64,000 nucleotides of DNA, taken from Bilabrum cf. latius. Its lineage: Eukaryota. Under the pieces are notes generated by a model. It did no database searches and was not told the DNA's origin. It was given only the letters and a program-made list of their open reading frames with translations. Position 1 is the stretch's first letter. Each line of letters opens with the position of its first letter. Positions 2,763 through 29,700 of this stretch are shown one piece after another. The position numbers and the translations under genes were made by a program. Location of the stretch: positions 434,001-498,000 of the forward strand of contig OZ237747.1 in the NCBI GenBank assembly GCA_965178125.1, in the 5' to 3' direction.

Positions 2763-4982
2763 TCAGCCAGTACGAGGCCGCTTCTGCATCCCGCCCCCAG
2801 CACCAGGCGCACTCTCAGCCGCCCGCTTCTGCCCAACATCAGGTGCACCAGGCCCCTGCTGCTGCTGCTGCCTCACCTGATCGATCGAAGCGATCTGCCC
2901 ATCCCACACGCCACCGCTCGCGGCCGTGTTCATGGCCTTGGCGGAGGCAGCCTTGGCCTCCGCCTGCGCCTACTGCTCGGATCCCCCGAATATGTCCGTT
3001 CGCTGCCTACCCATGCGCATCAGCGAGTCTCCGATCATCTCGTCCGGCACCAGCGCGGATGTGCTCTTCTTCTCCTTCTCGCGCTTCTGCTGCTCCTGGT
3101 ACGTCCTCTGGTCGATCAATCCGATCCGCATGGCCTGCTGCACCCCTTGCACCGGCACTCTCTCCCCCGTCTCGGGGTTCACGAACACACCGGAGCCTGC
3201 CCCCACAGGTGCCCGGGCGGGCCCCGCCCTCCCCGGAGCGTAGTCTTCGATGACCCTTATCTCCTCGTCGTCCGCTGCACCGGCCATTTCTGCTGGACTG
3301 GGGCCCAAAGACTCTTCCTGCACGGCAGCTCTGGGCTGCCCTGCCGCACTACCTCGGGCAGAGGAGGCCGCCGTCCTCGCGCCCACAGACCGACTAGACG
3401 GTGCCTGTGCCCCGCCTGCATCCATGTCCATCGCGTCGTCGTCTTCGTCATCATCATCGTCATCGTCCTCATCCATGTCCATATCGACATCATCGCCACC
3501 GGCCCCTTTGCTGGCCCCCGCGTTCCCCTGCCCCGCCTTGGCATCCACAGAGTGCCCCGCCCTTGCCCGTTCCTCCCTGGCCTCTTCTTCTGCCTTTCTG
3601 CGCCGAGCAGCTGCGAGGGCACGGGCCATGGCGGCCTGGGACAGCATACCGGCGGCACCACCAGACGAGCCGCTACTTCCGCTGCCGCCGCCCCCCGACT
3701 CGTGCACCGCGGCGGGGGCCAACTCGCCATTCGCGCGCCGCAGCGGCTCCGGTGCAGGCAGGTTCTCGGGCCAGTCATCATCGTCCAGGGTCTGGACCAC
3801 AGCGAAATCCTGCCAGTCCACCTTCCAGCCAGCCTGCGCCACCTGCCTGCGCTCGTTCCGAGCAGCAGCCGCGCGTCTCCTGGCAGCCCCCCGCCGCGCT
3901 GCCCTCGCCAACACCCCCTAGCCCTCCCCTCCTCCTAGTCCTTGTCCTTGTCCGCCCGCCCCCAAGCCGGGGTCCGCAGCCCCAGCCCCAGCCCCAGCCC
4001 CAGCCCCAGCCCCAGCCCCAGCCCCAGCCCCAGCCCCAGCCCCAGCCCCAGCCCCAGCCCTAGCCCCAGCCCCAGCTTTCGCAGAGGGCGATTTTTCCGT
4101 GCTATCTGTGGCCCTACCGCGTCTTCTCCAAGGGTCCCTTGCGTCCGCCTCTAATCTAGCTCGGTCGGCAGGAGGCAGCCTCAGCACTCGGCTGTAGGCA
4201 GCGGCTGCATCGCGAAAGGTGGGGTGGTAGGGGGATGACTGCTGCAGGCTGACCCGGAGCAGCTCGGCCCGGCGCTGTCTGCGCTGCTGCTCTGCGAGAC
4301 TACCAGTCGAGTCTGCTGCTTCCCGGGCGGCTCTCGCGGCGGCTCGAGCCACGGCCTCCCTGCCACCGATGGCGGCAAGCTGGGCCGCCAGCAGGAGGGC
4401 CTGCCGCTGCATCGAGCTCTGCGGCATGGGAGCAGGGGGGTGTAGCTGCGGCGGGGGTGGCTGCACACGCGGTTGATCCTCTGACTTGCTTTCTTCTTCA
4501 GAGTGACGATTGGCCTGCTGGCTCTCGCTCTACTCGGCCCACAGCCTCTCGTCGCGCTCAGCAGACCTGGCGATTTGCCCGATAACATCAATCATGGCTG
4601 CCCGGACGGTGGGAAGTGCAGTGAGGCGATCACCACCTTTTGCGATCCCAGAGCGTTTGTCTCGAGCTTCGTCCGTATCATCAGCGGCACGGGGTTGCTG
4701 CCCATCGCCCTGTCGTGCCTCGCCTGTCTCAACCCCCTTGGACGGCTCGTTCTTCTCCTTCGCCTTACGAGCCAGCAAATCCACATAAAAACTGTGATAT
4801 ACATGCCCCTCATCCAAGAACGCAAACTTGGCCTGCTCTGCGGCGGATGATTTCGCTGTCTGCCTAATACGCTACTCGAATTGTTTGCCGTACTACGTCA
4901 CAAACTTGGCAGCCTTCTCTATCACGCCAAGAACCTTTGGCGGTGGCTTAATATTCTAAACTGGGGCATCGATTGAGTCCAT
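2763..4982 (-). CDS. SF3A1: Splicing factor 3A subunit 1 / Prp21-like (SURP domain), divergent, ~739 aa
   Basis: One frame when TAG is read through. N-terminal SURP (IKPPPKVLGVIEKAAKFVT(Q)YGKQFE(Q)RI...KFAFLDEGHVYHSFY), then VDWQDFAVVQTL, IRVIEDY, NPETGERVP, RQRTDIFG and VWDG motifs typical of SF3A1/Prp21. Ends TGA. Confidence 0.8.
3977..4076. repeat. (CAGCCC)n hexamer microsatellite, about 16 copies, encoding poly-Gly-Ala inside SF3A1
   Basis: Directly visible hexamer array with one variant unit (TAGCCC at 4061). Confidence 0.95.
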
Positions 4983-5132: not shown

Positions 5133-5753
5133 ATGCACAGGATCAGTCGGCTTCGTGGTGGCATCGCGAAATCAGTTGTCACGCTGACTGCTGCTGCGCT
5201 GAGCTGGAGCAGGTAGTTTGCGTGTGCCGCTTCACCATCGATATATGATTTCGAGGTGCCCGACGAAACAGGCTCGGTGGTCAGCCTGAGGGAGAAGTTC
5301 GGCGACAAGCGTGTTATACTCGTCACTAATGTAGCTAGCAAGTGCGGATTGACGCAATCCAATTACAAGGGGCTTCGAGAGCTGCAAGCTGAGTTCTCGG
5401 ATCGCTCTTTCAGTGTTGTGGGATTTCCATCCGATTAGTTCATGAACCAGGAGTTTCCGGAGAATGAGCAGATACAAGAGTTTGCCAATAAGATGGGTGC
5501 TAACTTTCCAGTGATGGGCAAGGTGGACGTCAACGGAAATAGCGCGGACCCACTGTTCAAATGGCTCAAGCAGCAGAATTGGGGAGGACAGCCTATGGAG
5601 GCCATTGCTTGGAATTTTGCAAAGTTTCTCGTAGTTGACGGCAAGGTCATAGAACGATATGCCCCGACAACGCTGCCATCTAGCATCAAGAAGGACATTG
5701 AGCGCGCACTGAGCTCGGTGGAAGCCGACGATGCACCTCGAAGCGATCTGTGA
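5133..5753 (+). CDS. Glutathione peroxidase (Cys-type) with an N-terminal targeting-like extension, ~206 aa
   Basis: SIYDFEV...NVASKCGLT...GFPSD(TAG 5436-5438)FMNQE...KVDVNG...PLFKWLK...WNFAKFLV. The TAG sits at the Gln of the FPxnQF motif. Ends TGA. Confidence 0.92.
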
Positions 5754-5823: not shown

Positions 5824-8800
5824 TCAGGTCTCCCAGGCGCGAATCTAGGCAGATGCCATGGGCACCACCACCGCAACCTGCGCGTCCGGCGCTGCCAGCA
5901 GCACATCCCCTCTCTCCAGAGCCTCGGCACCCTCCCCTCCATCCAGTGTGCCAGCAATTTCTGCACATGAGCGCATGAGCGCCGCCCCTTGCTCAGAGAA
6001 CGCCCTGAACTCGCTGGACTGCAGCCGGGCAGCTACCCGGAAGAAGTGAGCCATGGCGGCCAGCAGCCCATCCGCGCTTAGCTCGACTAGGAACTGCGAT
6101 TCCGATTCCTGCTCGATACCCGGTGCCTGACGACTCCGACCTGACCCCTTGAAATGCCAATGGTCTTCACCACCCCCGGCGCCCGACATCGGCCCGAAGG
6201 GGTCAGCCGCGGAGGAGGAGGCGACGGTTGTGCCACCGGGTGCGCCGGTGCCGTCGGCCCCCGCCTCGTCCTCATCTAGCTCATCCGTGCCCACCACGGC
6301 AGATTCCAGCCGCGCCATGCCAAGCTCGCAGCCTGCTTGTGCAGCCCAGGCAATGATCGAGCCCGGACGCTTGCCCTTGCCCTTGCCCTTGCCCTTGCCG
6401 CCGGTCTTGCTGCCCTTGGCCTTTTTCTTTTCCTACCCGCTTCCTTTCCCACCTTCGTCCTCCGGCTCATCCCTCGCTTCCTCGGAGCTCCCACCGGCCG
6501 CCAGTTCCGCAGCCTCCCACAGCGTCTCGCAACAGCCCTGGAAGCAGTCCTGCGCCTCGAACACCAGATCCATCGCTTCCGCCACGATGCCCGGATCGGG
6601 TCGGATGTACGGCACGCGGCGCCCTCTACCTGCTGCCCTCGTGGCGATGCACCGGTTGATCCTCCGCCGCAGCTGAAGAGCTGACGCTACGATTCTCAGC
6701 GGCATGCACACGGGCATCGGGCTGCACCACGCAGCGTGGTCCTCGTGCAGCCATCGGCGGGACGCTGCGCGCTTCGGCGCCGTGCCGTCCTCCTCGACTT
6801 TGTGCTCTGCTGCCATAAGCACCCATGGCTCTCGGGTAGGCAGCGGGCAGCAAACGTCAGCTCGGGTCTGGATGGCAGTGGCGATAATCAAGCCGAGGTG
6901 CGGGCAGCGCCCTGCGATCAAGTTCCACAGGAACGACGCCTGGGGCGAGCGGGGCTGCGTGACCACGCATTTGGCGCTCATGCGGATCCCGCCGCCAGAC
7001 TGCTGCATCGACAGGCTACCAAAGGACGCAAGCAGCGGCAGCGGTACCGATCGGATGGACTCGGCGCCCCTCGCCAAACCCACCTAGCAGGCCACCCCGG
7101 TGTCCCTGGCCCTGCTCACGCACGTGTTCGCAGGGAGCTGGATCGCTTTGTTGCGCGCCCTGCCGGTGTTCTTCCACATGAGCTGCCCTGCAGTGTAGGC
7201 GGCCTTGAGCGTGAACAGACTCTCCGATTGCACCACCTTAGTGGCATCTTTGGCTCTCTCGCGCAGCTTCGGATCCACCGCCGCCTCCCGCCAGCCACCG
7301 CTGTCAGCACCGCCTCCGCCTCGCCGGCGCCCGTGCGCTCTGCGCCCGCCGCTCGGCTCCACGGTGCGCGCCATGGGACCGATCGAAGACGCAGGCGGAC
7401 CCGCTCCGGCTCCGCCCCGCGCGGCCGACTTGCCTCCCGACTTGCCTGCCTCGAGGCTAGGGAACAGCCCGGTCGTCTGCAAGTTCGGCTCGTCCGCTAC
7501 ATCCTCCGCGCCAGCCTCCTTCTCAAAGCTCGCACCCTTCAGGCTCTGCCTGCTCCGCCTCCTAAACTCTTGGTACGTGTCGTGCGAAACCCCACTCAGC
7601 ATGTCGACTGCCCGCAGGAACGCCGCCGTGGCTCGCAACACAGTCTCGTCGACGCTGTAGTCCGCAGACAGATTGCTGCGGGACGCGGGGCTCTCTCGGC
7701 TCGAGCCCCACGCCTTTTCGCCAGACGGGACGTACTCATTTCGCCTGCGCCTGGACGACTGGAAGGGCGCGCGGCCGTTCGACACGGCCTCCGCGAACGC
7801 GCACTCCATGGATGCAATGAGTCCGTACAGATAAACCTTGTCTCTTCTGAAGCCAGCCACAAGGCTCAAAAAGATAGAGAGAGCGTCGCAAATGCCGGTC
7901 GTCGGGTTCGGACTGTACTCTTCCTGTGGGAACACACCGACCATGGACCCGTCGGTGGTGGCTGCCAGGACCGCGGGGCTGACCGAAGCAGACCGAAACC
8001 GCGCCGTACCTTCCGTTAGCATCGGCGAGATTGCTTCACATTCAGCTTTGGTTAACGGCTCGTGCAGCGCCACCGGCTCGAAGACAATAGCGACAGCATA
8101 CGACTCGCGGTCCGCGCGCCTACCTTGCTTGCGATTTCTACCCTTCCCGGTCGCAGCGCCGCGGCTGCTTGCTTGCGTTGCAGGGATATACCTGCGCAAC
8201 TGTGAGCTCGCCACGCCTCTGCGAATGGCATCAGCGGCGAGAGACTCGGCCTTTGCTTCCGGCCCATCGCCCATCTTGAATGGAACGACGAGCACGGCAA
8301 GGACTGCGCCGCGGAGCTGCCGCGGTACGATGCTCATGAGCGCTCGAGGAGCGGACGCGAGGCCAACGGGCACGCCTTTCAGCACGCAGCACGTCTTTGG
8401 TGAGGCCGAATCTCGCCACCATCGAAGGAATGGTGCGTCACCGTCGCATCGTTCCGTGGCCGATGGCACCTCAACTCGTGAGGACACCCACAGCGCTGGG
8501 GTGCACGCCCTGGCTGGCGGTACGTACGAGGTGCTGCTCTCTGGCGGCGCTTCGACTCCGCGTACAACCGGCGGGTCGATGCGGTCACATGCATCGATCG
8601 AGGCAAGAACAGCCCTTCCAATGGCCTCCCGTCCGATCACGGCAGGAAGCAAGTCGGCGACGTGCTTTGGAAATCCGGAGGACGAAGCCAGCATTTGCTG
8701 CGATACGCCCATCGTAGCGTCCATAATGACTCGCAAGGTGTCTATGTCGTTCGACAAGAGAGACTCGTAGGCGTCTGCCTTGCCTCCATGCTTGCTCAGA

Positions 8801-11800
8801 GCGTCAATGGCCTCTCGAAGCCGACGGGAGCCGCCACTGGCCCTTGGATCGGGGCGCCGCCGGTCCGCTGCTCCTCCCCGCCTGTCTCGACCACGACCAC
8901 GACCACGACCACGGCCACGGCCACGACCTCCTCCTCTTGAAACATCGCCCGCCTCGAGCTGCTCTAGGACTCGGCGGGAGCACTCTACCACGAACGAATG
9001 CATGTGCTGGAGCCTTCGATGCATGAGGCCCCGGGCCGAGGCCCAGCCTGACCTCTCCTTGGGATGCACCTTCCTCCAGGCGAGGTACGCACCCCTGGCC
9101 ACAAATGCGTCCGACATGGAGCCCGCGTCGAGTGCGACGCGAGAGCCGCTCACACGCAGGAAGAGCTCGCAGAATTCGGACGGAGACGAGCTGCGCTTCA
9201 CGTTGGGGATCACAAAGACATCGCTCACGGTTGCCGATGCAGCCAGCAGCACGGCTTCCACCGGATTGCCTAGTGCAGTCGCAAGGCTCACAAACACACC
9301 AAGCCTGGCGTCTCCCGGGAACGTCGATAGCATCTGCCCCAGGGGGGTAACTCTCGGCTCGGCATCCTCCGAAGGCGCCTCCAGCAGACCCATGCTGAGC
9401 AGCCTGCCCTCGGCCTGCGGGACAGAGCCAGGGGCGGGCGGCTGCGGCGCGTCCGACAGGAGCTTATCTCCTTTCCCTTGCAGTCCCATAGCGCGGCACC
9501 GCAGCACGGTGCTATCCAGCGGCAGCCTCAGCATCTCCGGCTGGTCAAAGTCGGGCATGACGAGATCGAAGAAGCGCTGCGGGTAGAGACGGAAGCACTT
9601 CCCTGGGCCCAGCCGCCCTGCCCTACCCGACCGCTGCGTGGCGCTCGCCTTACTGACAAAGCAAGGCTTGAGAACCGCGGCGCCTAGTTTAGCGTCGTAG
9701 CGCATCTCCTTGTGGCAACCTAGGTCGATCACGGTGGTGACGTCGGGGATGGTGATGCTAGACTCGGCGATGTTGGTGGCAAACACGATCCTGCGGATTG
9801 AGGCCCTGTCCAGCGGCGCAAGGTCTTCCTCCTCAACGTGGTGGCCCGCGCTATCCCCGACAGAGGAGGCTCGCACGGGCGGGGAAGGTGGCAAGTCGGC
9901 TGCCTCCTCGTCTTCGCTTGCCCTGTACCCGTCCGACTCCGACTCCGACTCCGACTCGTCGCCCTTGACCACCCTAGCGTTCGGTGTGCTTGGCTTGCCG
10001 TCTTGGGTAAACGCCCGGTCCTGCTCCTCTTGCGGCAGCAGGGAGTGCATTGGAATGACGTCCAGGGTGCGCTGCAAGGCCAACGAGACCACGCTTTCGT
10101 CCTCAGCCAGCTCACAGCACGCCATGATGTCGGCAAGGCCGCTCAAGAACACCAGCACCGTCTCCCCTGGCCTGCACACCTCCGCCGCTAAGTGCACGGC
10201 GAGCTTCAGCCTGCCCTGTTCCTCCGAGGGCGACAGGTTCACCTCATCCAGGCCCTCCCTGCCGGACTCGGCCGAGTCGGCCAGCTTGTGCAGCCTCTGG
10301 GCGGCCTTGAGGGCGTTTTTCGAGAAGAAATGGGGGATCGAGATCTTCTACTCGGGGTCCACCTCGAACGGATCCTGCCCTCTTTCAATCCGGGCGATTC
10401 CCTCCGCCAGAGACCTAGGCCTCTGCACGCTGCCGCTCTCGATGATCTCGTCCAAGAACGTGATCGACACGGGGAACCGCTTCGCGCCGACGTGAATCGG
10501 GCTTATCTTCTGCTCGATGCTTCCTGATTCTCCGTCACCAGCCTTCTGGCCTGCATCAGTTTCCATGCCACGAGAGTCCAACTCCCAGTTCCCCACCGCA
10601 CCAGGCTGCAGCCCCTCGGCGAAGTAGCGCGCGAACAGTTGTGCGTCCAGCGTGGCACTCATCACGATGAGCTTGGGAGCGCGGCGACCTGCGGCTGCCG
10701 TGGCCCTCCGCAGCAGCATGCAGAGGAGGTCCGTGTCGAGCGAGCGCTCGTGCACCTCGTCCAGCGCGATGTGGCTCCACTTAACCGCCGGGGAAGCCTT
10801 GGAAAAAATGCTCCCACTGTCACCGTCCCCAGAGGCAGCGGCTGTGCTACCCGCAGTCACAACGGAGCCGTCCAGGGGTGCGAGCAAATCAGTGCCAGTG
10901 TCGTCCGCCTGCGGCAAGTTTGCAACGAGCCACTGTAGCAGCCAGCCTGTGGTCACGAAAGTCAACCTCGTGTCCTTCTGCACTAGCCTCTCGCCTCCCA
11001 GCCGATAGCCCACCAGCCCGCCTACGGCGCCCGTGTTCATTTCAAATGCAACACGCTGCGACAGCGTCCGCGCAGCTACCCGTCTCGGCTGGGTGATGCA
11101 AACCCTGTAGTCTGCAGCTCCATGGAGCTCCTGCGCAAGGAACTGAGGCACCTGACTACTCTTGCCGCTTCCCGTGTCTGCTGTCAGCACGACCACCTGG
11201 TCACGATCCAGCCGCTGCTTAATCTTCTGCTCGTGATCATGGATGGGCAGCCTAGGACCGCGGCTTGGAGGCAGTCCGCTCTATCTGGGGGCTTTCGCAG
11301 TGCTGGGCGGAGCTTGTATTGCAGCTGGCGCCATCGAGGATGGATCCGGTCGGGTTGCGGATGCTTCGGAGGATGACTTGCCACCAGGGTCCGCGGCAGT
11401 CGCCTGCCTCTTCGTCTCATTCCACGACAGAATTGAACCGCCATTCGAATCCTTTAGTTCGGCTGCACGCCCCTATGCCTTCTCTTTGGGTTCATCCCTT
11501 CCTGACCCGTCGCCTACAGGTGCGCCGCCCACACTAGCGAGGTCTGGCACAGACTAAGCGCTCCCTGTTGTGTCGGGGGCACTGTGCAACGGCTGCACAG
11601 GATCGAAAGCGGGAGCTCTCGAAGATCCTGATGGGTCAGGGTCGAGCTCATAAACCGAGTGCAGAAGCCACTGCTTGACCGCCGCAAAGACCTCGCCAGC
11701 GTGCGACTCATCCAGCAATCGCCGCAGCTCCGGCGAGACTGCACGGCTGCTCTCCGTCGAGTCGCCCCAGAGCCGGTCAGGTGTTGCGCATTCCAGCGCT

Positions 11801-14800
11801 CTTGCAATGAGACTGGGCCAGACAAAGCCTGGTTCTTGCTCCTGCGAGTCCTGCGACACGTGCAAGGTTAGCATGTTGCTGTACATGCTATTGAAGTTGG
11901 CGATTACAGCGAGGGTAGGCAGGTCGACGGCGGGAGCAGCCGGAAGATCTTGCCCATCCGGACCCAACGATGGACTGGGCCATACATCGCCCTCCTTATC
12001 ACCGTGCTAAGCCTAGTACTTCGCTGACAGCACGGTAGCAGCCAGCAGGCAGTCGCACAGTTGCTCGGAGATGATTTTTCCCTGCAGCACAACCTGCTGT
12101 GGCATACTGTGGCACACCACCGCACGGTCAATCCGAGTGAGCGCAGCTGGGTCGCTCCCTGCAGCAACCTGGGTGCTCTTTGGCTCGGGCATGGACATGA
12201 GCCTCTACATGCCAAGCAAGAACCGCAATGTTGCGGCTCCAGCAACTATCGTTCCGACAGTAGCATTCATGCACTCTTCGGTCCCCCACACCCGCAATGG
12301 CCCTTCAATGGAAGAAATCAGGCCGTCCGCCAGGGTGCACACCTTTGACCACCTGGCCTCCTGCGCTCGCCGTGCAGCGCCACCAATCCCTGGCAGCAGC
12401 GGCGCGCACGGCAACCAAACGAACGATGTGTGCTCGGCGGCTTCAGGCGCTGCAAGTGCCGCCTGCTTCCAGTCCCTTAGCCTCCATTCAGGAGGAGCCG
12501 CAGCCGGATCCACGCTCATGCTGGCAACCAGCATCAGCCGATTTGCCCCGCTTGTTCCCTCAACGGCACTTTTATCAGCTAGCAGTGCTGCAAATCGATG
12601 TACAATGCCTTCTGGTGCCCTACAATTGATCGCCATGTGGTGCATCCGTCCTCGCCACAGCAGTTCAATCTAGGCCCTTAGTCGGCCAAGCCCGGCAACT
12701 AGCAGGCCTTCAGGCGAACCAGCTACCTCTGCAGCTGTAGCAACCATCCTTTCATCCTTCAAGCCTATGGCCAGCTGCAATGCAAGCCTCATCGCGCTAA
12801 GCGGCTGCGTGAGCTGCCCCAGAGTGGGCGTCCTACTGCTGAAGGATCCTTCTCCCCACGTCTTCTGGCTGCCGCGACCAGGCTGGCACAGGCTCCTGCC
12901 GGCCGCATGCATGAGCATCTCGAGAGTTCGGTACGCTTGCTTGTCAAACAAACACTCGGTTGAAAGCGCTTCGATGACAGCTGCAGTATTCGGCGGCATA
13001 GTGAGCTCGATCGCCTGGTCGGCACTATCATCTTCGCCGGCTCCAGTAGCCGATGCTCCGCTCGAAGGCTCCCCTTCACGACGCAACAGCGTGAGACAGG
13101 CCGCAATACTCCTTGACACGGAACTGTTGATGGCCTCAGGTGCCTCTCCAATCGTGAGAGCGACTGATGGGTCCAGACCGAACGTTTGTCTTGTTCCCTC
13201 GAAGGCACGCTGCAGCTCCTCTCGGTCCTGCTCCTTGAGCGAGTCCACGACGCGCCTGAAACACGGAATTGCTTCCATCAAGCACGACTTGTCGCTCTTG
13301 TCTGCCGATCCGAATGAACGCTCATCAAGTTCCTCCGAAACCGGACCGCTGCCGGCCTGCAGTGCTTCGCTCTCCTCGCCGGCGTCGGGAGAATCGCCCG
13401 CAAGATCTCCTGCCACGTGCATGCAAATCAATTTGGCCGCTCCAGCAACCCTGATCGCGGCCCTGGTCACATCCTGCTCTTTGGCAGCCTGCTGGATGGC
13501 CTTGTTCTGCATGCCCAGTTCCTGCAGGTCGGCAGCCTCGTGCAGCTGCTTGGCCATGGAATGCAAGGAACTGCCCTGCTCGAACGAGTCCGGCTAGAAG
13601 AGCGGAGCGGTGAAGTCCCCACCCGCAACCGCGCATGCCTCGTGCATGATGGCGGCCCGTCGCTTGCTGGGCATCGGGGGAATCTCGAGCAGATCGCAGA
13701 GATCGCCAGGCGTGACCACCTGCAATGCAATAAGGGGAGCTTCGTCGCCGCCCGGTGCAGGTGCAGGCGGTGGGCCGCTGGCAGCAGCAGCAGCCTCACC
13801 ACCATTCATGGCAGCTGCAGAACCTGCTTCATCATCGTCGCTACCGTCCTCAAGCTCAGCAGTCGCTCCGAACATCCTCTCTATCACTGCATCTGCTTCG
13901 GCGTGCGGCCCCGCAGCGGAGGCCGGCTCATATAATCCCGTGCGAAAGGGGACCCAGCCGCAGAGTCGCATCGGATCATTAGAGCTAACCTGCTGCTTTT
14001 CTATTGTGCCGCTTGGCTCAGCACCGCTCGAAACAGAAGGAGGTGCACTGCCAGCGGCAGTATCCACCTCGGGTGGCAAATGCCAACTTCCTCCCCTTTC
14101 GTCCGATTCCAGTCTCGAGCTTGGGAAGTATACGCACATGTCGCTGTCGTCGCTCAAAATTCCTAGACAGGTCTCATCTTTGCGCAGGCCGAGGGCTGCT
14201 GCAGCGGCAGTGGGAGCAGAGAAGTCCTCCGTTCCCGCCTTGAGCTGGGGGCTGGAGGCGCCGGCCTCTGGAACGATGGGCCCGCATCCCAGAGCCGACT
14301 GCCACGCCTCTGCACCCAGCATTTCATCGGCCTCGTCGGGCGCCATGTAACAACGCACATCCATGCTTCGAAGCACACGGCGGACTTCCGCTTCCACTTG
14401 TTCCCCGGGTTTGCCTACGATGCTAGGTGGCACATCCTAGGAGGTTCTGCCACCTTCGCGACGGCTGCTGCTCAGTACAGTCTCCAGAAGTTGTGGGCCA
14501 AACGCACGCCTAGGAGCAGCACTCGAATGCTTTCCAGCGCTTTGCCTGGACACAACATCCACTGCATTGGTCAAACGCTCCAAACTCGACTGTGACTGCT
14601 TCTTGCGGTTAGCTTGCGTTCTGGCCTTGAGCTTGATCTCAACAGAGGTGACGCCTCGGCGGGCAGCTGCAAGCGACAAGTTCATAGCAAGTACCCTATC
14701 AATCGATGCAGCCTGTTCAAGGATGCTTGGCCCGTCGTAAACGAAGACGAGATCACAACCAGCACTTCTAAAAGCCGAGACGAACCTTGCTGTCGATGCG

Positions 14801-15021
14801 CGCACCATCGCGTTCCCACGCCCGTAAATTTCAGGGAACGGTACGAGTCGATCAGTTCTATCGCGAACATGATCCTACAGAGCTTCGTACAGCCTCCAGA
14901 GGAACGATGACGCGTCCACGAGAACGACGGTCCGGTGCCTGCCATTCACCAGGCTCTGAATCTTTCTGACCGGTTTCTTGAATACCTCAAGTACAAGGGC
15001 AGACAATCCTTTCACACCCAT
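5824..15021 (-). CDS. FEN1/XPG-like (Asteroid/FAM120-type) PIN nuclease fused to a DEAH/RHA-type RNA helicase, ~3065 aa
   Basis: Continuous frame with about 14 TAG and no TAA/TGA. Nuclease motifs: MGVKGL, VLVDASS, FVYDG, EADE, ILSDDSD, AGGDF. Helicase motifs: TGSGKS, TQPRRVAA, DEVH, SAT, ATNIAESSITIPDV, QRSGRAGR, and HA2-like TPLGQMLSTFP. Confidence 0.8.
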
Positions 15022-15245
15022 TGCAAAAAAATATCGATTACTTGTGTTCTTTGTGAATTATCTGGATCCAGCAAGTATCATTACAGTGCGGTGCATCTCC
15101 AGGAACAAGAGTTTCCCCTCATTCTTCTTCATTCTGAACCGTCCTGGCCACCAAACGGGGTGTCCTGACCGCAATAATGGCTCCGCACGCAAGCACCGTA
15201 TCACTGGCGGCCCTCAGCGACCGAGCGCAGAACGGTCGGTGCCAG

Positions 15246-16187
15246 TTACTGCCCCACTCGCTTGATACACGTGATGCTCGTGACTGCCCGCTCGCACACA
15301 GGAACCGGTGTATCCACGCAAGTGGGTCTAGAAATTACCTTACCGTTCAGGACGCTCACCGAGCTACCCCCCCCGTCCAGATTCACGGCGTGCAGTGCCC
15401 CTACATCCACGAGCGCATCGGCGAACTCGAACAGGTCGAGGCCCTGCTTGACGCTCTCGATGCCGTCCACCTGAAGGAGGAGCAGCTCTCCCGATGGGAG
15501 GACTCCAAGGCCGGTCCGTGGTGCCTTCTCGGTGGTGAATGTGCTCGACACGTTCAGGTCTGGGCTAGAGCGCACGTTGGACCGACCGTCTCGCACGAGC
15601 CAGCCGACGCCCTGCACCAGCGAGCTAAACTCAATCTGCGCCAGTTCTTCCTTGGGCAGGAATCCAATCGTGTAAGATTCGTTCTTGAGCAAGCCAAAAT
15701 TCACCCTGTCCAAGCCTGGGAGCTGCTCGACGGTACCATTGCCGCCAAGTACGAGATTTCCAATGCACCGGTCCGCTCCGGTATAAGCAAAGAATCCCGC
15801 ATTCGTGGCATACTCGCAGCCGCGCTACTATGCACTCATAGATGTTTTCTGCTCGCCAGAGCAAATGGGTTCTCCGATGTCGATGGTAAACCTCCTCGGA
15901 TCCGGCAGGATCGCGCTGTGAGCAACGTACCACCTTCCCGTGCTCTTTACGGTCGTATTGAAAGACTTCACTTGAATCTTATCAGGTGAATGCGGCGGAA
16001 ACATGATATTCACGGTGTCCTGACTCGCAGTTGCCTCTTTCGGCAAAAGGTGCTGTAGTGCTGCTGCGGTCGAGCTAGCCGAATCTTCTAGTCCTTCTGC
16101 AAGTCGGACGCCCATAGCAGATAAAATTGTAGACACAACGACTGATAAGGCCATCATTAGAGCCGCACTACTGTAGCAAGGCGCCAT
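15246..16187 (-). CDS. Phosphodiester glycosidase (NAGPA/DUF2233-like), secreted, ~313 aa, ends TAA
   Basis: Hydrophobic N-terminus, then (Q)(Q)RGCEYATNAGFF, GVGWLVRDG, APRTGLG, VDG, AVNLDGGGSS, CERAVTSITCI. Two tandem TAGs at 15825-15830. Confidence 0.85.
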
Positions 16188-16342
16188 TCATCTCCCGTGA
16201 GAGAGAGGAAGAGAAGCAAGCATCATGCTGCGCTAGTAGTACTTGCGCCGGCGGTGTCGGTGGTCACTGCAGCTCGATCATATCTCTTGTACAATGCTGT
16301 GGCAGGTAGACAGAATAGTTGTCCTGCACAGATATCGACCAT

Positions 16343-17935
16343 TTAACTTCCTTGGGATACGGTTCGAACGGCCCCCAGGAATCCTCGCGCGGCCTTCACC
16401 CACCGATCCACGACCACCTCCACGCCCTCCTTCGAGGTGGGGTTGAAGAAATTGAAGCACCCGACCGCGTCTTCCAGTGGCATCACTGGCGCCCCCTCAT
16501 CAAACCGTTCTACAGCCGCCATGGCTCCATCGTCACCTGCGGAGAGCACGCCCCCGCTTCCCTATGGAGAGGTCCGTGCCTTGCGCGCACGCAGCCTCCC
16601 AGCTTTGCCCCTTGCGTTGTGCTGCAGCAGACTGGGCCCCTTATTCTCCTCGGCCCAGCGAGCCAGCTCCTCCTGCTCATCCCCCGCATAGACCTCCGCA
16701 GCCACACTTACGAGCACCCCAGCCTCGAGTACGGCCCAGTCCAGAGACGTCCCAGGGCTGACATAGTGCAGTGTGGTGCCAGCGGCCCCCCTCGGCAGGT
16801 CCACTCCCAGTGCCTCCTTCATCTTGCGGACGGCCAGCTGCGCGCCCGCCATCGGGTCGTCGGGGTCCACACCGTGTGACGAGTGCACCGCGGCCTGCAT
16901 GGCCTGCTTCAGCTCCGCGCCTGCTTCCCTGCCGTCCTCGGTCCACGCCGGCGACTCCATGAGCGTGTATGCGCCGCTGTGCAGCGTCAGGTAGCCTTGG
17001 GGCCGGGCCTTCAGTATGATATCGCGCAAGTTTCGCGTCTCCTCCTCGCTGAAGGGGGCAGGCCCTGGGTACACCTCCCACGGGGAGAAAGGAGGAGGGA
17101 CGACGGGGAATGAACCGAGGTCCAGCTTGCTAGTATCCGTGGAGGTGGAGGACTTATGTGAGGGCTCTTCAGTCCCATCTGCCGCCTGTGAAGAGGGCCG
17201 GCTGTCTTCTGTAGTTACGGACACAGACTGCGACGTCGATTCTGTGTGGCTGGTGCCTGTGATTTGGCCAGGTGGCGCCTCCTTCTCCTTGCCCTCCTCC
17301 TCCTTGCCCTCCTCATCCTCGCCTCTGCACTTGCTGCTGGAGAACTCACCGGCTGCCGCCCGCACCGACATGATCGAGCGCTTCCCAAGCGCGTGGCGCG
17401 CATTGTCTTGCAGAAATGCTTGCTCTTGACTTGTACTTTCGGTGACTGACGGAGGAGGGACCGCTTGGAAATGGCTCGGGAAGTTGCGATTCAGGTCGAC
17501 GCCGCGAGCGTTCGTCCGGCGGCAAAGCTCTCCCCCTTCAACCATCTGTCTTCCGCCTAAATTGACAATAGGCACTATCGTAATAGCAAAACCGCTCGGC
17601 ATATTGCCTTCGCAAGCAGCCCGCAGAATGCCGATCGAGACTTCGGCTGTAATCACCTCCCGAGCATGCTCGCCTGACACTATGACCGCCCGTAGAGCAG
17701 TTTCGGCAGTGTCCTAGGCTGGTACACTTACTTCAAATGCCCTGACACTCCCAATGGACACATCACGCACAACGGCATGGATGCAAGCACCCGGCGAAGT
17801 AGACTCGGTGAAGATGCGAAAGACGTCCACCGGCTCGTGGTAGATTCCACCAATCATGGCCGAACACTACTTAAACAAAAGAAGGCATGCGATAATCCCT
17901 ATAATCCATAGTTTTCCATTCTTTCCGGCCCACAT
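16343..17935 (-). CDS. Zinc carboxypeptidase, peptidase family M14, ~530 aa, ends TAA; start uncertain (alternative ATGs at 17857 and ~18040)
   Basis: GEHAREVIT (HxxE), RRTNARGVDLNRNF, YPGPAPFSEEET, TLHSG, GTSLDW, AAEVY, CFNFFNP. Signal-like MWAGKNGKLWIIGIIACLLLFK(Q)CSA. Confidence 0.85.
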
Positions 17936-18046
17936 GGAGCCAATTCTGCCGCGCGCCGGCTCGATCAAATTGTTTAGTGGGGTTTTGACAAGTGAAACTG
18001 ATTTAAATCGCTTCCATGCCGTTTCGTCTGGCTGCTACATCCCTCC

Positions 18047-21000
18047 ATGCGAAATGTATCCTTATTTATACACAGCATTCTTTGGGACACTCCACCAGAA
18101 TCCGTGAGTCCATTTTCTACCGGGTAGAGCCGTGGTTTGCCACCATGAGCTTGGGTTGCACTTTTTTTGAGTTCTAAGCGTTTGATCATTCTCTCGCAGG
18201 ATTTTGACATCTGTCTGTCAAATGAACGAGGCCGAGTTATCTGGCGACATTCTGTATCACCGCCTGAGCCAGGAGAGTTTGAATGCGGTTTGCATCGTGG
18301 GGCCCGGTTGCAGGTACAACCCGGCAAGAAGTTGCAGCTCCAAACAGATGCAAGGTGCGCGGACAAAGGCGCAAGCTGTACTTTATCATCATTCTAGCTG
18401 ATTGGTCAAGTGCCTTTGGCTCTGACTACCGGAAAAGTTGACGTGCACATTCCGCTGTCGCCGAATGTGTGGGTAGGCAAAGAGGGCCGGTCTGCTATTT
18501 TGTCAACAGAACAGCGAGTTGGGGACGCGCAGGCATGGGTCCTTGCCACAATTTTAGTTGAAACTACTTCGTCCTTAGTTAAGGAAGGAGAGAATCCCGT
18601 AGCAGGGGCGTCACACCCAGAGGCAAGACCTTATAGTCCGGCGCGGCAGGGGCCAGAGCGCGATGACGAAGCAGGCATCGCGGCGCAAGGCCGTGGCGAG
18701 CCGAGCCTCGGCCCAGAGCAGCCAGCTATTGCTGATACCAAGACAGGTGGCCCCTAGAAACACAGCGGCGTAGTCACCGATTCGGCAGCACCAGCCCGAT
18801 AGAGTCTCAAGAGGCACGATGGATCAAAAGGAACGTGGCACCCGGGCGACGCCAGCGCGTGCCGGCCGATGTACCAACCGCCACCACTATTCTACGCTTC
18901 GCCAGCTCCAGCAACTCGCAGCCGGTATGCATCCATGCCAGGGCGCGGCAGCGGGGGGGCTCCAGCTCTGATCTCGATCGCGTCGCCTTCGTCTGCCGGA
19001 GCCCCACACTGGGCCCGCACACGGCCAACCGGTGCTCTGAAGCCAACTGCTGCCGCGAAGGGCGTTGCAGAGGTGCTTGCTTCGGGAGAATCGAGGGTCC
19101 ACAAGGGATTGGATCCCTAGCACGCCACACCGTTGCATAAGCAATCCAGGGATCCCTTCGCCGGCTCGGCTGGTGTTCACTCCGGGCAAGGTCTAGACCA
19201 CCACCAGGCTCAGGGGAAGGTGGCCTCAACAGGTTCTACTAGAAGCAGCCGCGATCACGTGCTGTCGATGATGCAGGCATAGCTCACGCAGATCAGCCAT
19301 GCGCTAGGATTGCCACCACCACCAAGCCAGAGCCGTGTAGATGGTAGAGACGAGAGCGTTGGTAGGGTCGACAGTAGGCTCCAACAAGAAGAATCCAAGG
19401 AACAGGGCAACAACAGAGCCGCCAGTGTTCGGCAGGTTGATATTGGTACGGTCTAGCTGCAGTCTCGGCTGGATGGTGCGGGCGCTGCCTAGAGCTTGTC
19501 GATTCGACAGCAAGGCAGTGTGACCCGGCAGGAATCGGAAGAGCTTCTGCTTCACGCCTCAGGGCACGGTCGAGTGGCTACAGATGCAGACCTTCGGTCG
19601 AGCTGGAAGGGTGCAGGAAGAAGCAGGCTGCAGCGTGGGATGCGACGGTCCCGTGAGCAAGACCGTGGCATGGCGGTCCTGGCAGCAGGTAGCGTGGCGA
19701 GGGCACACGTGCATCTGCAGCAGACACGAGCTGGGGTCCCGTTGGCCAGAAGTGGAGTCATTCGAGGGTAGATGCAGCCTTCCACTAATGATGAGGCGTC
19801 GATGACAAAAGCAATTGCAACTGCATCGAGCAGAAATCCGCCCAGACGCGGCTTGGGTGCTTCCACGCTCGAGGCAGCCAGTATGCCTGCGACAGTCCAG
19901 CGAAGTCAAAGCAACGCCGACGCGGACTTTCAAGCTGCTGACGTCCCCGACGATGTTCTTGAAAGTCTGGAAAATGCCTGGGGCGATCTGGACTTGGCAA
20001 GCGAGAGGGGCACGAGGGATGAGTCCAGCTACTTGGACCCACACGAGCGTGAAGACGACGTGCTACCGCCTGTGAAGGCCGCAGCCAGCCCGACCAGAAG
20101 CTCGATGAAATCTAGTGAGCGAGGTGCGTAGGCGAGTCTGCGAGATAGCACGGCAAATCGTGGTGGTATTGCTTTGTATGCTTCCAGAGGGGCAGGGGCT
20201 AGAGACAGCATTCGGTCTGCGTTGCGAAATGCCGTTGCGTTGGGGGACTCGACGAAAGCGCCAGTCTCTAGCAGCAAGAGAAAGCAGTCTGGCTCCCGAA
20301 CTTCTCGTGCGTCTCTTGCGGAGGCATCATAGCTTGACGTACCCAGCGACCCTTAGGAAGCATCTGACGTCCATGGTGAGTCCACGTCGGTCCAGCAGCA
20401 GTCATCGTCCGCAAGCAACTCACCTGTCGCATCGGATCGAGTACCTGTCATCGACGTGGCCAAAGCCGGACCACTAGGTCGCCCTGCAGTTGACATGCGG
20501 GTTGCCTCATCCACGGGTGGCAGCTTCCACGATGCCCAGGGCAATGCACTGCTGGGAACTACTGGATAGCTCTCCGGCCTCATGAGCGCCGACTCCCTCG
20601 AGGTGAGCGGATCTGGATAGCAGGCCGGGCAACCCGGCGAGTCGGTGTCGAGTGCACGGGCCGGAGATGAGGACAACCATTCGCATGGACCAGGGTTTGG
20701 ACATAGACTGTTGCAGGCCAGGGTTGTCTCCCCACCGCCATCTGATTCGGACGCGGCTGGTCTTCTTCGTGCTGGGTTTGGCTCGCCGAGCGCGCATCCG
20801 GCACCTTCACACGCGAAGCTCCCCGACACGACTCGCGATAGCATGACGTCAACCTCGACCCCGAATCGACTGGCCGTGGTCGAAGTTGATGCTGTTGACC
20901 CGTCAGATGGTCATCGCCCGCGCCTGACTCCTACCGACCCCGTGGCCGAGGCAGGATCACATGGCAGCGCTGGAGCCGAGACCGCGTCAGCGTCTGACAG

Positions 21001-23787: not shown

Positions 23788-26700
23788 TCACCTCCCGCCT
23801 TGCCGACGTGCGACTTCCCTCGCCCTGCGCTCGACCTCCTTGATCTTAGCAAGCTCGCGCGCGACCGTATCGCTGCCTCGAGACCTACTTGCATACGTGC
23901 TGCGGGATGGCGTCCTAGCGCCTCCTTGGTCCAAACCTCGGCTCCGAAGCCTCGAGGAGGAACTTGTGCGGCCCAGTGCATCTCTGTCCCTCACAGAGCG
24001 GCCCCCGCTCGGTCTGGACCCGCCTCCAGAACGCCGTCCTGTTTCAATCTCAATGTCAACCTGCATCCCCCTGCCTCGCTGGATCCCTGAGGAAGCGCCA
24101 CGATGCGAGAGCCCCTCTTCTTTTCCATTGAAGGTATCCGTCCGTGCCAGCGGCTGCTCGTGCCTTTGACTGCGCTCAGATTCCAGCATTCCACTGCGGC
24201 GGCCATTTCCGTTTGTTGCTGCTCCGCGGGGGTTATGCGGATCTTGTGGTCTCGCTGCTACTGACTGTCCCCGTCCATTCAGCTCAGCCAGCGACATGGC
24301 ACCCGTCCTCGAAGACGAAGAACGGAGAGCACTTCCCCCCTGAGTATCTACAGGCAACTCTTCCCGCACGACATCCGTCGCGGCCCTTCGAGGCTGCTTG
24401 CCAGCATCCGTGTCAGTGGCAAGCTCCATCACACCGCTCCGAATAGCCCGCAGGTGACCATCAACCTCTGCTTCATCTGCCGCCTGCTGCGCCGCCATAC
24501 GTGCCTATTCTGCACGTGCCCCCTCCAGCGCGGCTTGCGCGCGCTCATAGCGTTGCTCCGTGACTTGCCTTTGCATTTGCTCCTCGCGCAATCTGCGGTC
24601 AGTCGCAGACAAAGACTCGGCATGTGCGCCCAACTGGGAGAGTAGAGCCTGCTCTTTCTCTTTGGAAGCGTCATAAAGCCGATTGGACTCGTCGAGACGG
24701 CGCTTTAGGTCCCTAGCTTCCAATGCAGTCGCGTCGAGGTGCTGTCGCAGGCGCTACACCTCCTCCTCAAGCTCTCTTCTTCGGCCAGCCTCGGCTTGCA
24801 ACGCCTATTCTTTAGACTCTTGGGCATGGCGAGAAGTTTGCTTCAGCTGGTTTAGTTTTGAAGTTACCTCAGAATGCTAGAGAGCCCTCTGCCTTGCGTC
24901 TGCAAGCTGCTGCCGCATTGAGTCCAGGTCGGTGCGAAGGCTAGCGATCTCGTCGTCTCGAGTTATGAGCAGTCGTTCTTGCGCAGCAGTCTTCGAAAGA
25001 GAGCCGTTGAGCTCTGTCTTCATGGATGACAGCTGCTCGGAGAGGCCGTGCAGTAATCCTTCCGCGGCATCCGCCCGATCCTGAGCCGCCTTGAGCTCGC
25101 GCTCAAGCGCCTCTGAGTCCCCACGGGCAGCAATCTCGGCCTGCTGAGAGCGATCCGACACCTCGAGCGCGGCATTGAGCTGCTGTTGCAGCTCCGCCGT
25201 GGCCCTTTGGATGCCTGACTGCACTTCCGTTTCCCTTGAGTCCTCCTCCCGTCTTAGCCGATCCTACAGCTCTTGCACACGAGCTTCAGTCGAGCCACTG
25301 CGCTGCTCAATCTCTCCTGCATCTCGTCTAGCTTTGTTCAAGTCGTCCTCAGTTGTACCTAGCCTAGTGCGGAGGCCTTCGGCCTCTGCCCTGCGGGCCA
25401 CAAGCTCCTACTGTGCTTCGTGCAGCTGCCGCTCCGCTGCCTCAAGCGCACCCCTGAGCTGCGCCTCAGTTCGCCGGCTGCTGTCCGCAGACGACCCTTG
25501 CTCAAACCGGGCAGTGCGCAGCTGCTCCTTCGCATCGGCTGCCTCTGCCTAGAGTGCCACCACCTGCGTCTGCAGGTCGTCAAATCTCTCTTGCAAAGAT
25601 GCCAGCGCGGTGTCCTTGTCGGCAACCCGTTGTTGCAGCTCCTGCTCATGGGCGGCCGAGCCGCCGAGCCTGCTCTGCAGGGCTGCTATCTGCTCGTCTG
25701 CCCCTCTCGCACCAGCCACTGCTGCTTCCTTCTCTGCCACTAGCCGGCCAATCTAATCCTCCACCTCGGCTTTATCCCGCTGTGCCCGGTGCAACCCCAG
25801 CTGCAGCTCCTGAATGCGTTTGGACGCCTCGGTGCCGCTCATCTGTGATAGCCTCTTCGCCTCTGCGAGATCGTCGCGGAGAGCCTGTACAGCTTCCTCC
25901 TGACTCATCGTCTGAACTTCCAGCTCGCGCTGCCTCATTTCCGTGGCTTGTAGTTTGGTCTGCGTCTTTTTGAGCGCTGCTTCAAGCTCTAAGACCTGGC
26001 CGGCAGCGTCATCGCGGGACTTGGCAGCTTCTCGCAGCAACTGCGCGGCGCGGTTAGAAGCGCTGAGAGCAGCCTCCACCTGGCTACCTCGCTGGTCGGA
26101 CGCGCCACCATATGCCACCAGCTACATCCCCGACTCCGAGGCCGCCGCCCCATGCCCACCCTTGCCAAACGCTGCACCACCGCCAGCCAGCCTACTAGCA
26201 GTTTGGTCCGACCCCCGGGTGGCAACGGCTGAGGCTTCCGTGACGGCTGCAATAACCTGAGCAGCTTGCTGGGCCAGTGCATCTAGCGTGGCTTTCATTG
26301 CAGCGCTCGATTCAGTTGCAGTCATGGCCTGCCTTTGCCTGCCATCTGCGACGTCACGCACCCTTTCGGCCTCCTGTCTTGCCTCAACGATCTCTCGCTG
26401 CAGCTCGCGAACTGTCTCCTGCTCTTTCTGCAGTGATCCACGGAGTGACCCCACTTCAACCTCTAGCCTTGCGTTTGCCCCCTACAGCGTGGCTCCATCT
26501 GCGACCTGCTTGCCTTGCATGGCTTGCAGCTGCGCCACCTGCTGCTGTTCCGCAAGCAAATGTTCCCGGATCTCGTCCACTTCGCGCGACAAAGACTGTG
26601 CGCGAGCCTCCTATCTAGTAGCCCGCTACTTGGCCCGCTCTGCTTGCTGTCGCGCGTCTTGTCCTGCTTCGGTGGCCTGATCCCGCTCGTCGATGGCAGT

Positions 26701-29700
26701 ACGGAGCTCCTATTGCAGCCGAGCGGCATCTGATTTCAGCTTTGCTGCTTCCTTTCTCACGGCATCGCGCTCTATGCTCACGGCATCTGCTGCAGATTTA
26801 CAAAGCGTGAGCTGATCCATCGTCTTCACAAGCTGGGCCCTGAGACTGGCCACCTCGGCTCGCAGGGTCTGCTCCGACAGCCTCACCCGGCCCAGCTCGG
26901 ATTCCGCAGTGTCCTTTGCGGCGCGAGCCGAAGTGGTGGATGCGGTGGCCTCGTCTCGCCTTCTCTTCTCAGCTGCAAGCTCAACCTTAAGCGCTTGGAC
27001 CTCGCGCTGAGCGTCCGTCACCTCCGTCTCTGCAGAATTAATCCGTTGCTTGAGTGCAGCTGCCTAGTCTCGGCTTCGGGTTGCCGCCTCGCGAGCAGCA
27101 GCGACGTCCGACCTGAGCCTCTGGTTCTTGTCCTCGTCTGCTGCCAAGCGCTGTTGCATCTCACGAATCTCTATGGATTGCGTTTGCATGTCGCTCTGTG
27201 CCTCTGCCCTCTCCTGCTTGGCTCTGTGCAGCTCCTGGCGCAGATCGCGAATCTGCCTGTCGCGCTCCACAACGGTTTGCTAGTGCACCTGCGCCTCCTG
27301 CGCCTTTTCTTCTACGGCGCTCCTAGCTTTGCTCAGTTCTGCCTGCCAGATGTCCCTGTCTGCCTCGCGCGCCTCTCGTCCCTGTTGCTGCGAGTCTTGC
27401 AGCTCCTGCCGCAATCCTGCGCACTCTCCCTCAAGAGCAAGCACTCGTTCTCGCAGCTTTTCGTGAGCACGGTCCGCATCTCTTTGCACCGCCACAAGTG
27501 CACCTCGGCTTTTTTCGAGAGCCGGAACCAGTGCCTGCGCGCGGTCTTCTGAGGTGGACAATCGCTGCTGGAGCAGCGCTGTCTGCTGCTCTGCTTCTGC
27601 GAGCGCCTGGTCGCGCGTGGCCACTGCATCGTCGAGGTCCAGCTGGAGCCGCCGCAGGGTTTGATGCATGCTCTCAGTTTCCTCCGCCCTTCGTGCCAGC
27701 TCATCGCCCCGCTCTCTGAGCTTCTCCTGCCACCGGCGCTCCTGCCGGCGCGAGCCCTCCGCTCTGGTCTTCGCCTCGTCTGCCTCGAGGATGGCCTGCT
27801 CGACTTCGTGCCTGCTCTGCCGTAGTGCAGACTCTAGCGCAGTCACCTTGGCTTGCAGCACGGCCACACTCCCGGCACTCTCCTGTGCTGCCTCGTGGTT
27901 GCGAGCAACGGACCGTCTCAACGCAACCAACTCCTGGTCTGTGCGCTTGGTCCTGGCTCTGAGCATGGTGCTTTCCATCGTGTCTGCCGAGACGAAACCC
28001 CTCGGCGTGTCGCCCAGATCGTCTTGACTGAGACCCCTTTGGTCTGTCCCTCCACCCTTGTCATGCGCGCTCCTCATGGTGCTGTCGAGCTCTTCGATCC
28101 CCGCAGGAAAATCAGTATATCCCATTCTGCCCCCTGAAACACCGGAAGGAGACATGCCGCCACCGTGCGTGTCTTGCCTCCCGTGCTTCCCCCTGCCCCT
28201 TGCCTGCAGTGCTGCCAGTCTGGCGCTGCTGTAGCCGTACCTAGATTCCACCGAAGCATCTACGTCATCCTCGGTGTCAACCGACCTGCCATCCAGGTAT
28301 CGCAACCGTCGGCTGGCAGCAGACGAAGTGGGTGCCCCCCGCTGTGCCCGACCACCTCTAGGCATGCGCCCATCCCGAGGGCTGCTTTCGTCACCAGGGT
28401 ACTCCTCGTCGCCGGGACGAACTGTTGGTGAGACAGCTCTGACTCGTCCTTTGCCTCCACCGGAGCCTCCGCTGCGCGGTGTAGGCGCAAATGAGACGTC
28501 AATGTCGCTGGAAGCTCGCTTGACAGCTTTTTTCCTGGCCTCGTCTTCGCCAAGCAGGTCGATGGTAGACTGGTCCAGGCCCAGGTCAGCTGCACGCGAC
28601 TGTTGCTGCTGCTCCTACTGTCCTCGTTGCCCGGTGCCGTGCGTCGAGCTGCCGTAGGGCTAGCGAGCGGTGGCTGGCGCCCCTCCTGGGAAAATATCCG
28701 GGCTTGAATCTTCGCCGGGCTGCGTGGTCCCGAAATCAAAGGTAACTGCAGCGCCGAGGGCATCAGACAGCCTGCCCTGCTTCTGAGACGAGATACGGTC
28801 TTGACCACTGGACCGCCCACCCAAGATTCCAGACAAGCGGTCTACGTCGGAGCCATCCGGTCGGCTCCCAGCTCCAGAATAACCTGATTTTGCACGCGGA
28901 GACCCCCAGCCCGCCTTGTCCTTTGATCCCTCACCAGTCGCTGTATCTGGTGCTGGCTCACCCCTTGCAGACATGGGCGAGGAACTGTGGTCCTTGTTGC
29001 GACCGCCCTGCCGATGCCGCGATGCCCTGGATGATCCCTGCGGGCTGGCAGACCTCGGCAAGAGGTCATCGGAATGGAGGCTGCCTGCATCCACGGACTC
29101 CTACGCAGAGGAGAGGGAACCCCTCGATGGCTTGGAACCAGGAGAACGCATAGAGCCGGAGTGGTCTCTCCTTGGTGGCGGGGGTGGGCGCCTGCCGCTG
29201 CTGCTCGTGCTGCTCTCCCACGTCCGCACCGTCTCTCCTTTCGACGCCATCGAGGGAAAGCCGCCCAATGCTGCGTGCACACCACGACCAGGCCCGATGC
29301 TGCCGGCGTCAGTCTCGCGGTCCGTGTCGATGCCGCCAGCCGCAGACCATGCAGCCAGCTAGGACTGCTCCTCTGTGTGTCTCTGGATGTCCTTCATGAG
29401 GGCATGACCCGCCTTACTCATCGTCTTGCGGAGCGCGCCAGGCCGCGAGAAACCTGAGCTAGTCTGGACTCTCCGCAGACCAGAGTAGTCCCCGGCCAGT
29501 CGCCTAGGCTCCTCTTCGTCGGTGCTTGATGACTGGTGCCCACTAATCGCGGCCTTGGCAAACTGCGTCCTCAGGTGCATCTTGCTGGGCACGCTGATCA
29601 GCTTGCTCTCCATCTCTGCGAGCTTGCTGCGCAGCTCCTCAGCCTCTTGCTCGCGGCTCCGAGCCTTTGCCTCTGCGGCTTCCTTGGCTCGTTCCAGCTG

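Follow-up and report, generated by a model that had tools for sequence, protein, structure and literature searches.

Different meanings of UAG and UAA in a GC-rich eukaryotic contig, with glutamine the probable reading of UAG

Gene content and open reading frames

The stretch of DNA analyzed here (hereafter, the window) comprises 64,000 nucleotides (nt) of contig OZ237747.1 (positions 434,001 to 498,000 of the forward strand) in the assembly GCA_965178125.1 of Bilabrum cf. latius, and the subject of the analysis is the meaning of the codons UAG and UAA in its protein-coding genes; all coordinates below are those of the window. The GC content stays at 57-63% along the whole 64 kb (about 60%). 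Frames that are open when TAG is read through encode eukaryotic domains, namely, according to Pfam searches, a kinesin motor (PF00225, E 1.3e-82), cathepsin C together with its exclusion domain, and SF3a/PRP21 together with the Surp domain. Additional Pfam or PDB matches were obtained for DNA polymerase alpha subunit B, a DEAH-type helicase core, glutathione peroxidase, alkaline ceramidase, NAGPA, an M14 carboxypeptidase, a rhodopsin domain in two proteins, and a Ras-family GTPase. Both strands carry genes, the measured spacers between them are 155-224 bp long, and a set of 18 genes, each with its own start and its own domains, occupies ~56 of the 64 kb. Introns are few: a 96-nt GT..AG intron (18104-18199, + strand) lies at the 5' end of a gene of 1828 codons, where contigs of the runs X5, X7 and X8 show the spliced joint 18103->18200, and the gene for DNA polymerase alpha subunit B is split, its last exon being 58957-59472. 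The DNA is nuclear and comes from a eukaryote with a compact, intron-poor genome. The homologues of the NAGPA-like protein bear the names of choanoflagellates, a chrysophyte, a euglenid, a sponge and Capsaspora, all at 40-50% identity, and the kinesin motor matched generic kinesin clusters only.

With the standard stop codons, the longest frame in the window spans 1087 amino acids (aa), as against 3077, 2614, 2109, 1915 and 1828 aa for the five longest when TAG is read through. A comparison of six sets of stop codons showed that this gain depends on TAG: with TAG as a sense codon, the longest open reading frames (ORFs) comprise 3078, 2615, 2110, 1916 and 1829 codons, with TAA alone as a sense codon the maximum is still 1088, and with both TAG and TAA as sense codons the longest ORF merely grows from 3078 to 3130 codons. 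The longest frame, the 3077-aa ORF with the DEAH-type helicase core (5824-15057, - strand), contains 14 in-frame TAG codons, ends in TGA and is open only if TAG is sense; the kinesin gene (23788-31632, - strand; 2614 codons) contains 21 in-frame TAG codons and likewise ends in TGA.

Counted from the first ATG in each gene of the 18-gene set, the 18,804 codons include 145 in-frame TAG, distributed over all 18 genes, with no TAA and no TGA, alongside 203 CAA and 605 CAG; read in their other two frames, these genes contain TAA 57 and 61 times. A preliminary description of this DNA had reported that in-frame TAA is lacking while TAG is common and CAA is in use, and these counts bear it out. The absence of internal TAA is partly built into the count because TAA served as a stop when the ORFs were delimited. 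This objection is answered by the coverage of ~56 of the 64 kb by the gene set, by the observation that sense TAA yields no longer ORF, and by the extension to only 3130 codons when TAG and TAA are both taken as sense. Nor are real genes fused or lengthened appreciably when TAA is read through.

UAG and UAA differ in meaning both in the window and in the metagenome relative described below, so that the claim of the preliminary description that the two codons are decoupled, with TAG a frequent sense codon that most likely stands for glutamine (Gln) and TAA found only at gene ends, holds up. We assign a probability of about 85% to the reading under which, in cytoplasmic translation of this nuclear DNA, UAG is a sense codon, most likely for glutamine, and UAA and UGA are terminators, UGA being the more common of the two.

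A scan of metagenomes with an alignment of three M14 sequences identified two loci, L001 and L002. The first of these (3532 nt, GC 55%) encodes an M14 orthologue that is 54% identical to the protein of the window over 474 aligned residues and contains three TAG codons and no TAA in frame, and it terminates with TAA. The gene upstream of it, in the opposite orientation, is homologous to the 1828-codon gene and also has in-frame TAG. The gene order is the same in the window and in L001, with the M14 gene divergently adjoining the homologue of the 1828-codon gene (L001 1-1186 and 1326-3056, corresponding to 16343-19000 of the window). L002 is shorter, and its M14 protein is identical to that of L001 over the overlap. 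A second species, clearly different and only distantly related, thus shares both the gene order and the code.

Relatives are represented in public databases by fragmentary proteins that start or stop at or near an in-frame TAG, for example P0004 (139 aa, compared to 236 in the window), P0131 (442 compared to 530) and P0132 (322 compared to about 540). These proteins are fragmentary because the genes were called with the standard code; annotation of such organisms, and homology searches with their proteins, depend on the right code.

The residue at TAG codons

The most informative TAG codon is located in the glutathione peroxidase gene (GPx; coding sequence 5133-5753, + strand), at 5436-5438. 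Here, FPSD-TAG-F lines up with the FPCNQF of solved GPx structures, such that TAG occupies the position of the glutamine that belongs to the catalytic tetrad of these enzymes. Among the 150 best of the 8169 homologues, this column contains Q in 130, N in 5, D in 5, S in 4, E in 3, T in 1 and K in 1, with one sequence unaligned.

The two rhodopsin paralogues (paralogue 1 at 53454-56435, + strand; paralogue 2 at 61680-63998, - strand) each contain a type-1 rhodopsin domain with a conserved context of the Schiff-base Lys, followed by an extension that adds over 500 residues at the C-terminus and for which no Pfam family was identified; their matches are generic type-1 rhodopsins. Identity between the paralogues is 73% over 674 aligned residues, and a TAG codon occurs at three aligned sites, where its partners are CAG, CAA and GGG. 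The pairings with CAG and CAA each lie in a conserved context. The TAG at residue 434 of paralogue 2 (62697-62699, - strand) corresponds to CAG at 55641-55643 in paralogue 1, within the context TQLMV(G/D)-Q/TAG-KNRAMA, and the TAG at residue 752 (61743-61745, - strand) corresponds to CAA at 56373-56375; the TAG paired with GGG sits in a divergent stretch.

An internal comparison of the same kind is provided by the gene at 31887-38216 (- strand), which encodes a 2109-aa coiled-coil protein with a ubiquitin-like domain near the N-terminus and 11 tandem copies of a 39-residue repeat (ELA.AKAAHEQAVAEG...EMEQ) at about 33300-34600 (- strand). One of these copies has TAG (33903-33905, - strand) at a position where the other 10 of the 11 have CAG. 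Furthermore, one TAG site of the ceramidase corresponds to Q in relatives that are 94% and 52% identical, and one TAG of L001 pairs with CAG in the window. When BLOSUM62 scores were summed over 17 sites, Q ranked first with 30, followed by E with 20 and K with 8. On the strength of these alignments, TAG very likely encodes glutamine.

The sole serious rival to glutamine is glutamate, the meaning of UAG in one ciliate code, with TAA and TGA as stops; we consider glutamate, or any other residue, improbable in the window. Glutamate ranks second in the 17-site score, and several alignments tell against glutamine. At a well-aligned site of the M14 protein, the window has GAG where L001 has TAG (GGELCRR/AGxLCKR), and at a second M14 site the arrangement is reversed, with TAG in the window and GAG in L001; a TAG of DNA polymerase alpha subunit B aligns with E in the human protein, and one ceramidase TAG site is E in human ACER3. 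Moreover, the majority of the TAG sites fall in variable columns that are uninformative as to the residue. The TAG columns of the NAGPA-like protein are variable, the TAG sites of SF3a pair with R and A in the PDB search, those of cathepsin C and the helicase lie outside the parts aligned with PDB structures, and a PDB search with the histidine phosphatase produced no matches. Glutamate is nevertheless at odds with the GPx catalytic column (Q in 130 of 150, E in 3), with CAG or CAA opposite two of the three TAG sites in the rhodopsin paralogues, with CAG in 10 of the 11 repeat copies, and with Q in the close relatives of the ceramidase. The exchange between glutamine and glutamate is the most common substitution for either residue, so that some glutamate partners are to be expected if TAG encodes glutamine. 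It is because of the glutamate found opposite TAG at three sites that we regard glutamine as very likely rather than proven.

Terminators and the status of TAA

Three genes of the window, all on the - strand, end in TAA: those for the ceramidase, the NAGPA-like protein and the M14 carboxypeptidase. The preliminary description had placed these ends at 475, 15246 and 16343, and the coordinates proved right, the latter two being minus-strand stops that appear as TTA on the + strand; its further statement that these genes stop shortly after their last conserved motif agrees with our comparison of the C-termini.

The coding sequence of the alkaline ceramidase (475-1185, - strand; 236 aa; PF05875, E 2.4e-29) contains three in-frame TAG codons and terminates with TAA at 475-477; P0005, the closest full-length homologue (52%), ends two residues later. 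The NAGPA-like phosphodiester glycosidase (15246-16187, - strand; 313 aa; PF09992, E 1.7e-23) has TAG at residues 120 and 121 and its TAA at 15246-15248. The PF09992 match covers profile positions 2-167 of 169 on residues 123-307 and stops six residues ahead of the TAA, and the protein extends six residues past the last conserved Cys, compared to a median of 4 (range 2-20) among 60 aligned homologues. These 60 were drawn from the first 75 of 120 rows (234 homologues were found), the 15 rows left out being the fragments P0017, P0058, P0063, P0066 and P0067 and ten others dropped to limit the number. In the M14 carboxypeptidase (16343-17935, - strand; 530 aa from the Met at 17935; PF00246, E 1e-19), TAG occupies ORF residues 65, 116 and 500, with a fourth TAG (residue 9) upstream of this Met, and TAA is at 16343-16345. 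The relative P0131 (87-89% identical) shares the end residue (..VSQGS), and in an alignment for which 5 of the 10 matches were used, some 20 residues separate the conserved C-terminal motif CFxFFNP..VVxRW from the end.

Read-through past the TAA would add 45 codons to the ceramidase, 14 to the NAGPA-like protein and 39 to the M14 protein, the latter two then ending in TGA (at 16223-16225 in the M14 gene); the next genes downstream of the three TAA ends begin 155-224 nt away. The X7 contig stops at 16278 and the X8 contig at 16233, which is 65 and 110 nt beyond the M14 TAA and short of the TGA at 16223-16225; contig ends give only a weak hint. All three TAA codons close their genes where the homologues end.

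In the 18-gene set, three genes end in TAA and 15 in TGA. Once the Ras-like gene is counted as well and DNA polymerase alpha subunit B is given its true last exon, TAA closes three of 19 genes and TGA 16. The three TAA ends given in the preliminary description thus stand; for TGA it had given 17 ends in 20 genes.

A context-dependent code of the Condylostoma/Blastocrithidia type, in which TAG would also terminate near the 3' ends of genes or TAA would sometimes be sense, is less probable still than glutamate at TAG, and we consider it quite unlikely. What speaks for such a code, and hence against TAG being sense throughout, is that 3 of the 18 genes have a TAG within their last seven codons, so that some termination at TAG is conceivable: TAG stands 0, 3 or 6 codons ahead of TGA at 44416-44421, 31887-31901 and 5824-5847 (- strand), in the genes 44416-50163, 31887-38216 and 5824-15057, respectively. 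This excess of late TAG codons is not significant (P = 0.066), however, and if TAG were the stop, a TGA at such close distance in all three genes would be unlikely because a codon of a random frame is TGA or TAA with a frequency of only ~1.6%. A TAG terminator is needed by none of the genes, and internal TAA was not seen in any of the 18. The late TAG codons could be former TAG terminators that turned into sense codons, or could have arisen by chance.

We also considered that UAA and UAG (UAR) both encode glutamine, as in NCBI table 6, with TAA scarce merely because the genome is GC-rich and present at the three gene ends by coincidence. TAA is indeed the rarest of the three triplets on both strands of the whole window (390, compared to 959 TAG and 1601 TGA). 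Codons ending in A, however, are not rare in these genes, with CAA making up 25% of CAR codons, GAA 27% of GAR and AAA 24% of AAR. Scaled from the A-/G-ending pairs CAA/CAG, GAA/GAG, AAA/AAG and TTA/TTG, the number of in-frame TAA codons should be 27-53 with TAA and TAG synonymous, whereas none was found (probability of zero 1e-12 to 1e-23) even though the other two frames contain dozens. In addition, in three genes of the window and one of L001, a terminal TAA coincides with the end of the homologues. We therefore consider the table-6 reading very improbable and rejected it on the in-frame counts.

The weakest alternative, that the in-frame TAG codons are not translated as such but represent pseudogene lesions, assembly errors or sites edited in mRNA, found no supporting point and can be dismissed as barely credible in view of 145 TAG codons spread over all 18 genes, frames open for up to 3077 codons, an identical sequence in runs of four studies, the same pattern in a relative that is ~54% identical, and contigs of X7 and X8 (two studies) that are letter-identical to the window over 16278-17927 and 16233-17929, a span that includes the three in-frame TAG codons and the TAA of the M14 gene. 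As X7 and X8 contain the spliced joint 18103->18200, they probably include RNA, and the unchanged TAG codons in contigs that bear the joint argue against editing of the transcripts.

Several points weigh against the proposed code. The assignment of RNA status to the runs X5, X7 and X8 is a guess of the tool used, and none of the listed runs that contain this sequence is on record as RNA. The sample consists of 64 kb and 19 genes, such that sense TAA that is rare or dependent on context may occur elsewhere in the genome. As for the decoding machinery, a scan of the 64-kb window for tRNA genes yielded none, an Rfam search of it gave no matches, and eRF1 is not among the 19 named genes of the window.

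Known codes, a possible origin and other features

Few eukaryotic lineages give UAG and UAA separate meanings, according to passages of PMC5304391 and PMC11687900. The preliminary description had called a UAG-only glutamine code rare and likened it to NCBI table 15; its rarity is confirmed, but precedents exist in Iotanema spirale and in ciliates, and the label stems from an erroneous attribution of 'code 15' to Blepharisma, as pointed out in a passage of PMC5304391. The combination of UAG as glutamine and UAA as a stop was first shown in 2017 for Iotanema spirale (Metamonada, Fornicata), and the relevant passages of PMC5304391 report for this organism no evidence of sense UAA or UGA, UAA as the predominant terminator, a predicted tRNA with the anticodon CUA, and T32G in the GTS motif of eRF1; they also show UAG as leucine in a rhizarian and mention a documented tRNA-Gln(CUA) in some organisms with UAR as glutamine. 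So far as these passages go, the codon meanings in Iotanema are the same as those proposed for the window. The two cases differ in the terminators, UAA being the main one in Iotanema whereas the window has TGA in 16 and TAA in 3 of 19 genes, and in the material, a transcriptome in the Iotanema study and a 64-kb genomic contig with about 60% GC here.

Ciliate macronuclear genomes are usually AT-rich, and phyllopharyngean ones usually gene-sized. Protocruzia tuzeti and two phyllopharyngean lineages, as described in parts of PMC11687900, use UAG for glutamine and UAA as a stop just as proposed for the window. The window, in contrast, has about 60% GC and carries many genes, on both strands, in one long contig. 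Other decoupled codes known from passages of PMC5304391 and PMC11687900, namely those of the rhizarian exLh (UAG as Leu), Scotinosphaera (UAG as Ser) and the ciliate PL0344 (UAA as Lys, UAG as Glu), resemble the window in the decoupling but differ in the residue; among the 150 best homologues, the GPx column of the window includes no Leu and only four Ser.

The UAR code of table 6, known from many ciliates, hexamitin diplomonads, Ulvophyceae, Streblomastix and Amoeboaphelidium protococcarum, agrees with the window in the meaning of UAG, but the organisms using it read TAA as glutamine too, whereas the window has no in-frame TAA in 18,804 codons and three genes that end in it. In Amoeboaphelidium, both codons 'appear to encode glutamine' in the wording of PMC6299283, a description that does not fit the window. 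The 'code 15' of phages (crAss-like and others; PMC9523058) is alike in having TAG as glutamine and both TAA and TGA as stops; it operates, however, through bacterial translation and phage suppressor tRNAs, whereas the window contains spliceosomal, kinesin and DNA polymerase alpha genes and a spliceosomal-type intron. Thus, the type of code is already known, and the organism of the window is probably a further case of this rare code.

By analogy with the mechanism outlined in passages of PMC5304391, UAG would be decoded by a tRNA-Gln with the anticodon CUA, probably a mutated copy of tRNA-Gln(CUG), and eRF1 would have lost affinity for G at the third position of stop codons while still recognizing UAA and UGA. 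The preliminary description had ventured an independent origin involving a modified eRF1 and a suppressor tRNA restricted to CUA, a part of its interpretation that is so far conjectural. UAA would escape decoding because a CUA anticodon is unable to pair with it; likewise, a passage of PMC11687900 states that a tRNA with this anticodon is not expected to read UAA. Each new case of such a code informs how eRF1 distinguishes G from A at the third stop-codon position and whether a single tRNA(CUA) suffices for reassignment, and a GC-rich lineage with TGA as the main stop would contrast with the UAA-dominated Iotanema.

We tentatively suggest, as a possibility somewhat short of even odds, that the window represents an unreported independent origin of UAG as glutamine with UAA as a stop, in a GC-rich clade with compact genomes that is neither ciliate nor fornicate and includes at least two species (~54% identical in an orthologue), with TGA as the main terminator and the late TAG codons as relics of former terminators. 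In the literature covered, which leaves out most subscription journals and hence does not prove absence, no GC-rich non-ciliate other than Iotanema turned up in which UAG is glutamine and UAA a stop.

Among the remaining features of the window, the protein with the helicase core (5824-15021, - strand; 3065 aa from the first Met) has its best PDB matches in DHX15, DHX29 and Prp43 (E about 1e-55), and it starts with MGVKGL, a sequence that may resemble the N-terminus of XPG/FEN1-type nucleases. For the exon of the Ras/Rab-family GTPase (39774-40364, + strand), the profile match begins only at position 23, so that the P-loop must be encoded in an upstream exon; the C-terminal end of this protein lacks Cys. 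No gene was recognized in the ~1.6 kb that follow (40365-41950), for which there is no Pfam match above the threshold and the codon-usage signal is weak; the codon-usage scan, being a weak discriminator, left this region undecided. Finally, contig depth is very high (to about 2000) at 3336-4002 and 8672-9338, where many contigs have loose ends and contigs of other organisms pile up, and the first of these segments overlies the part of the SF3a gene that encodes Gly-Ala and acidic low-complexity repeats.

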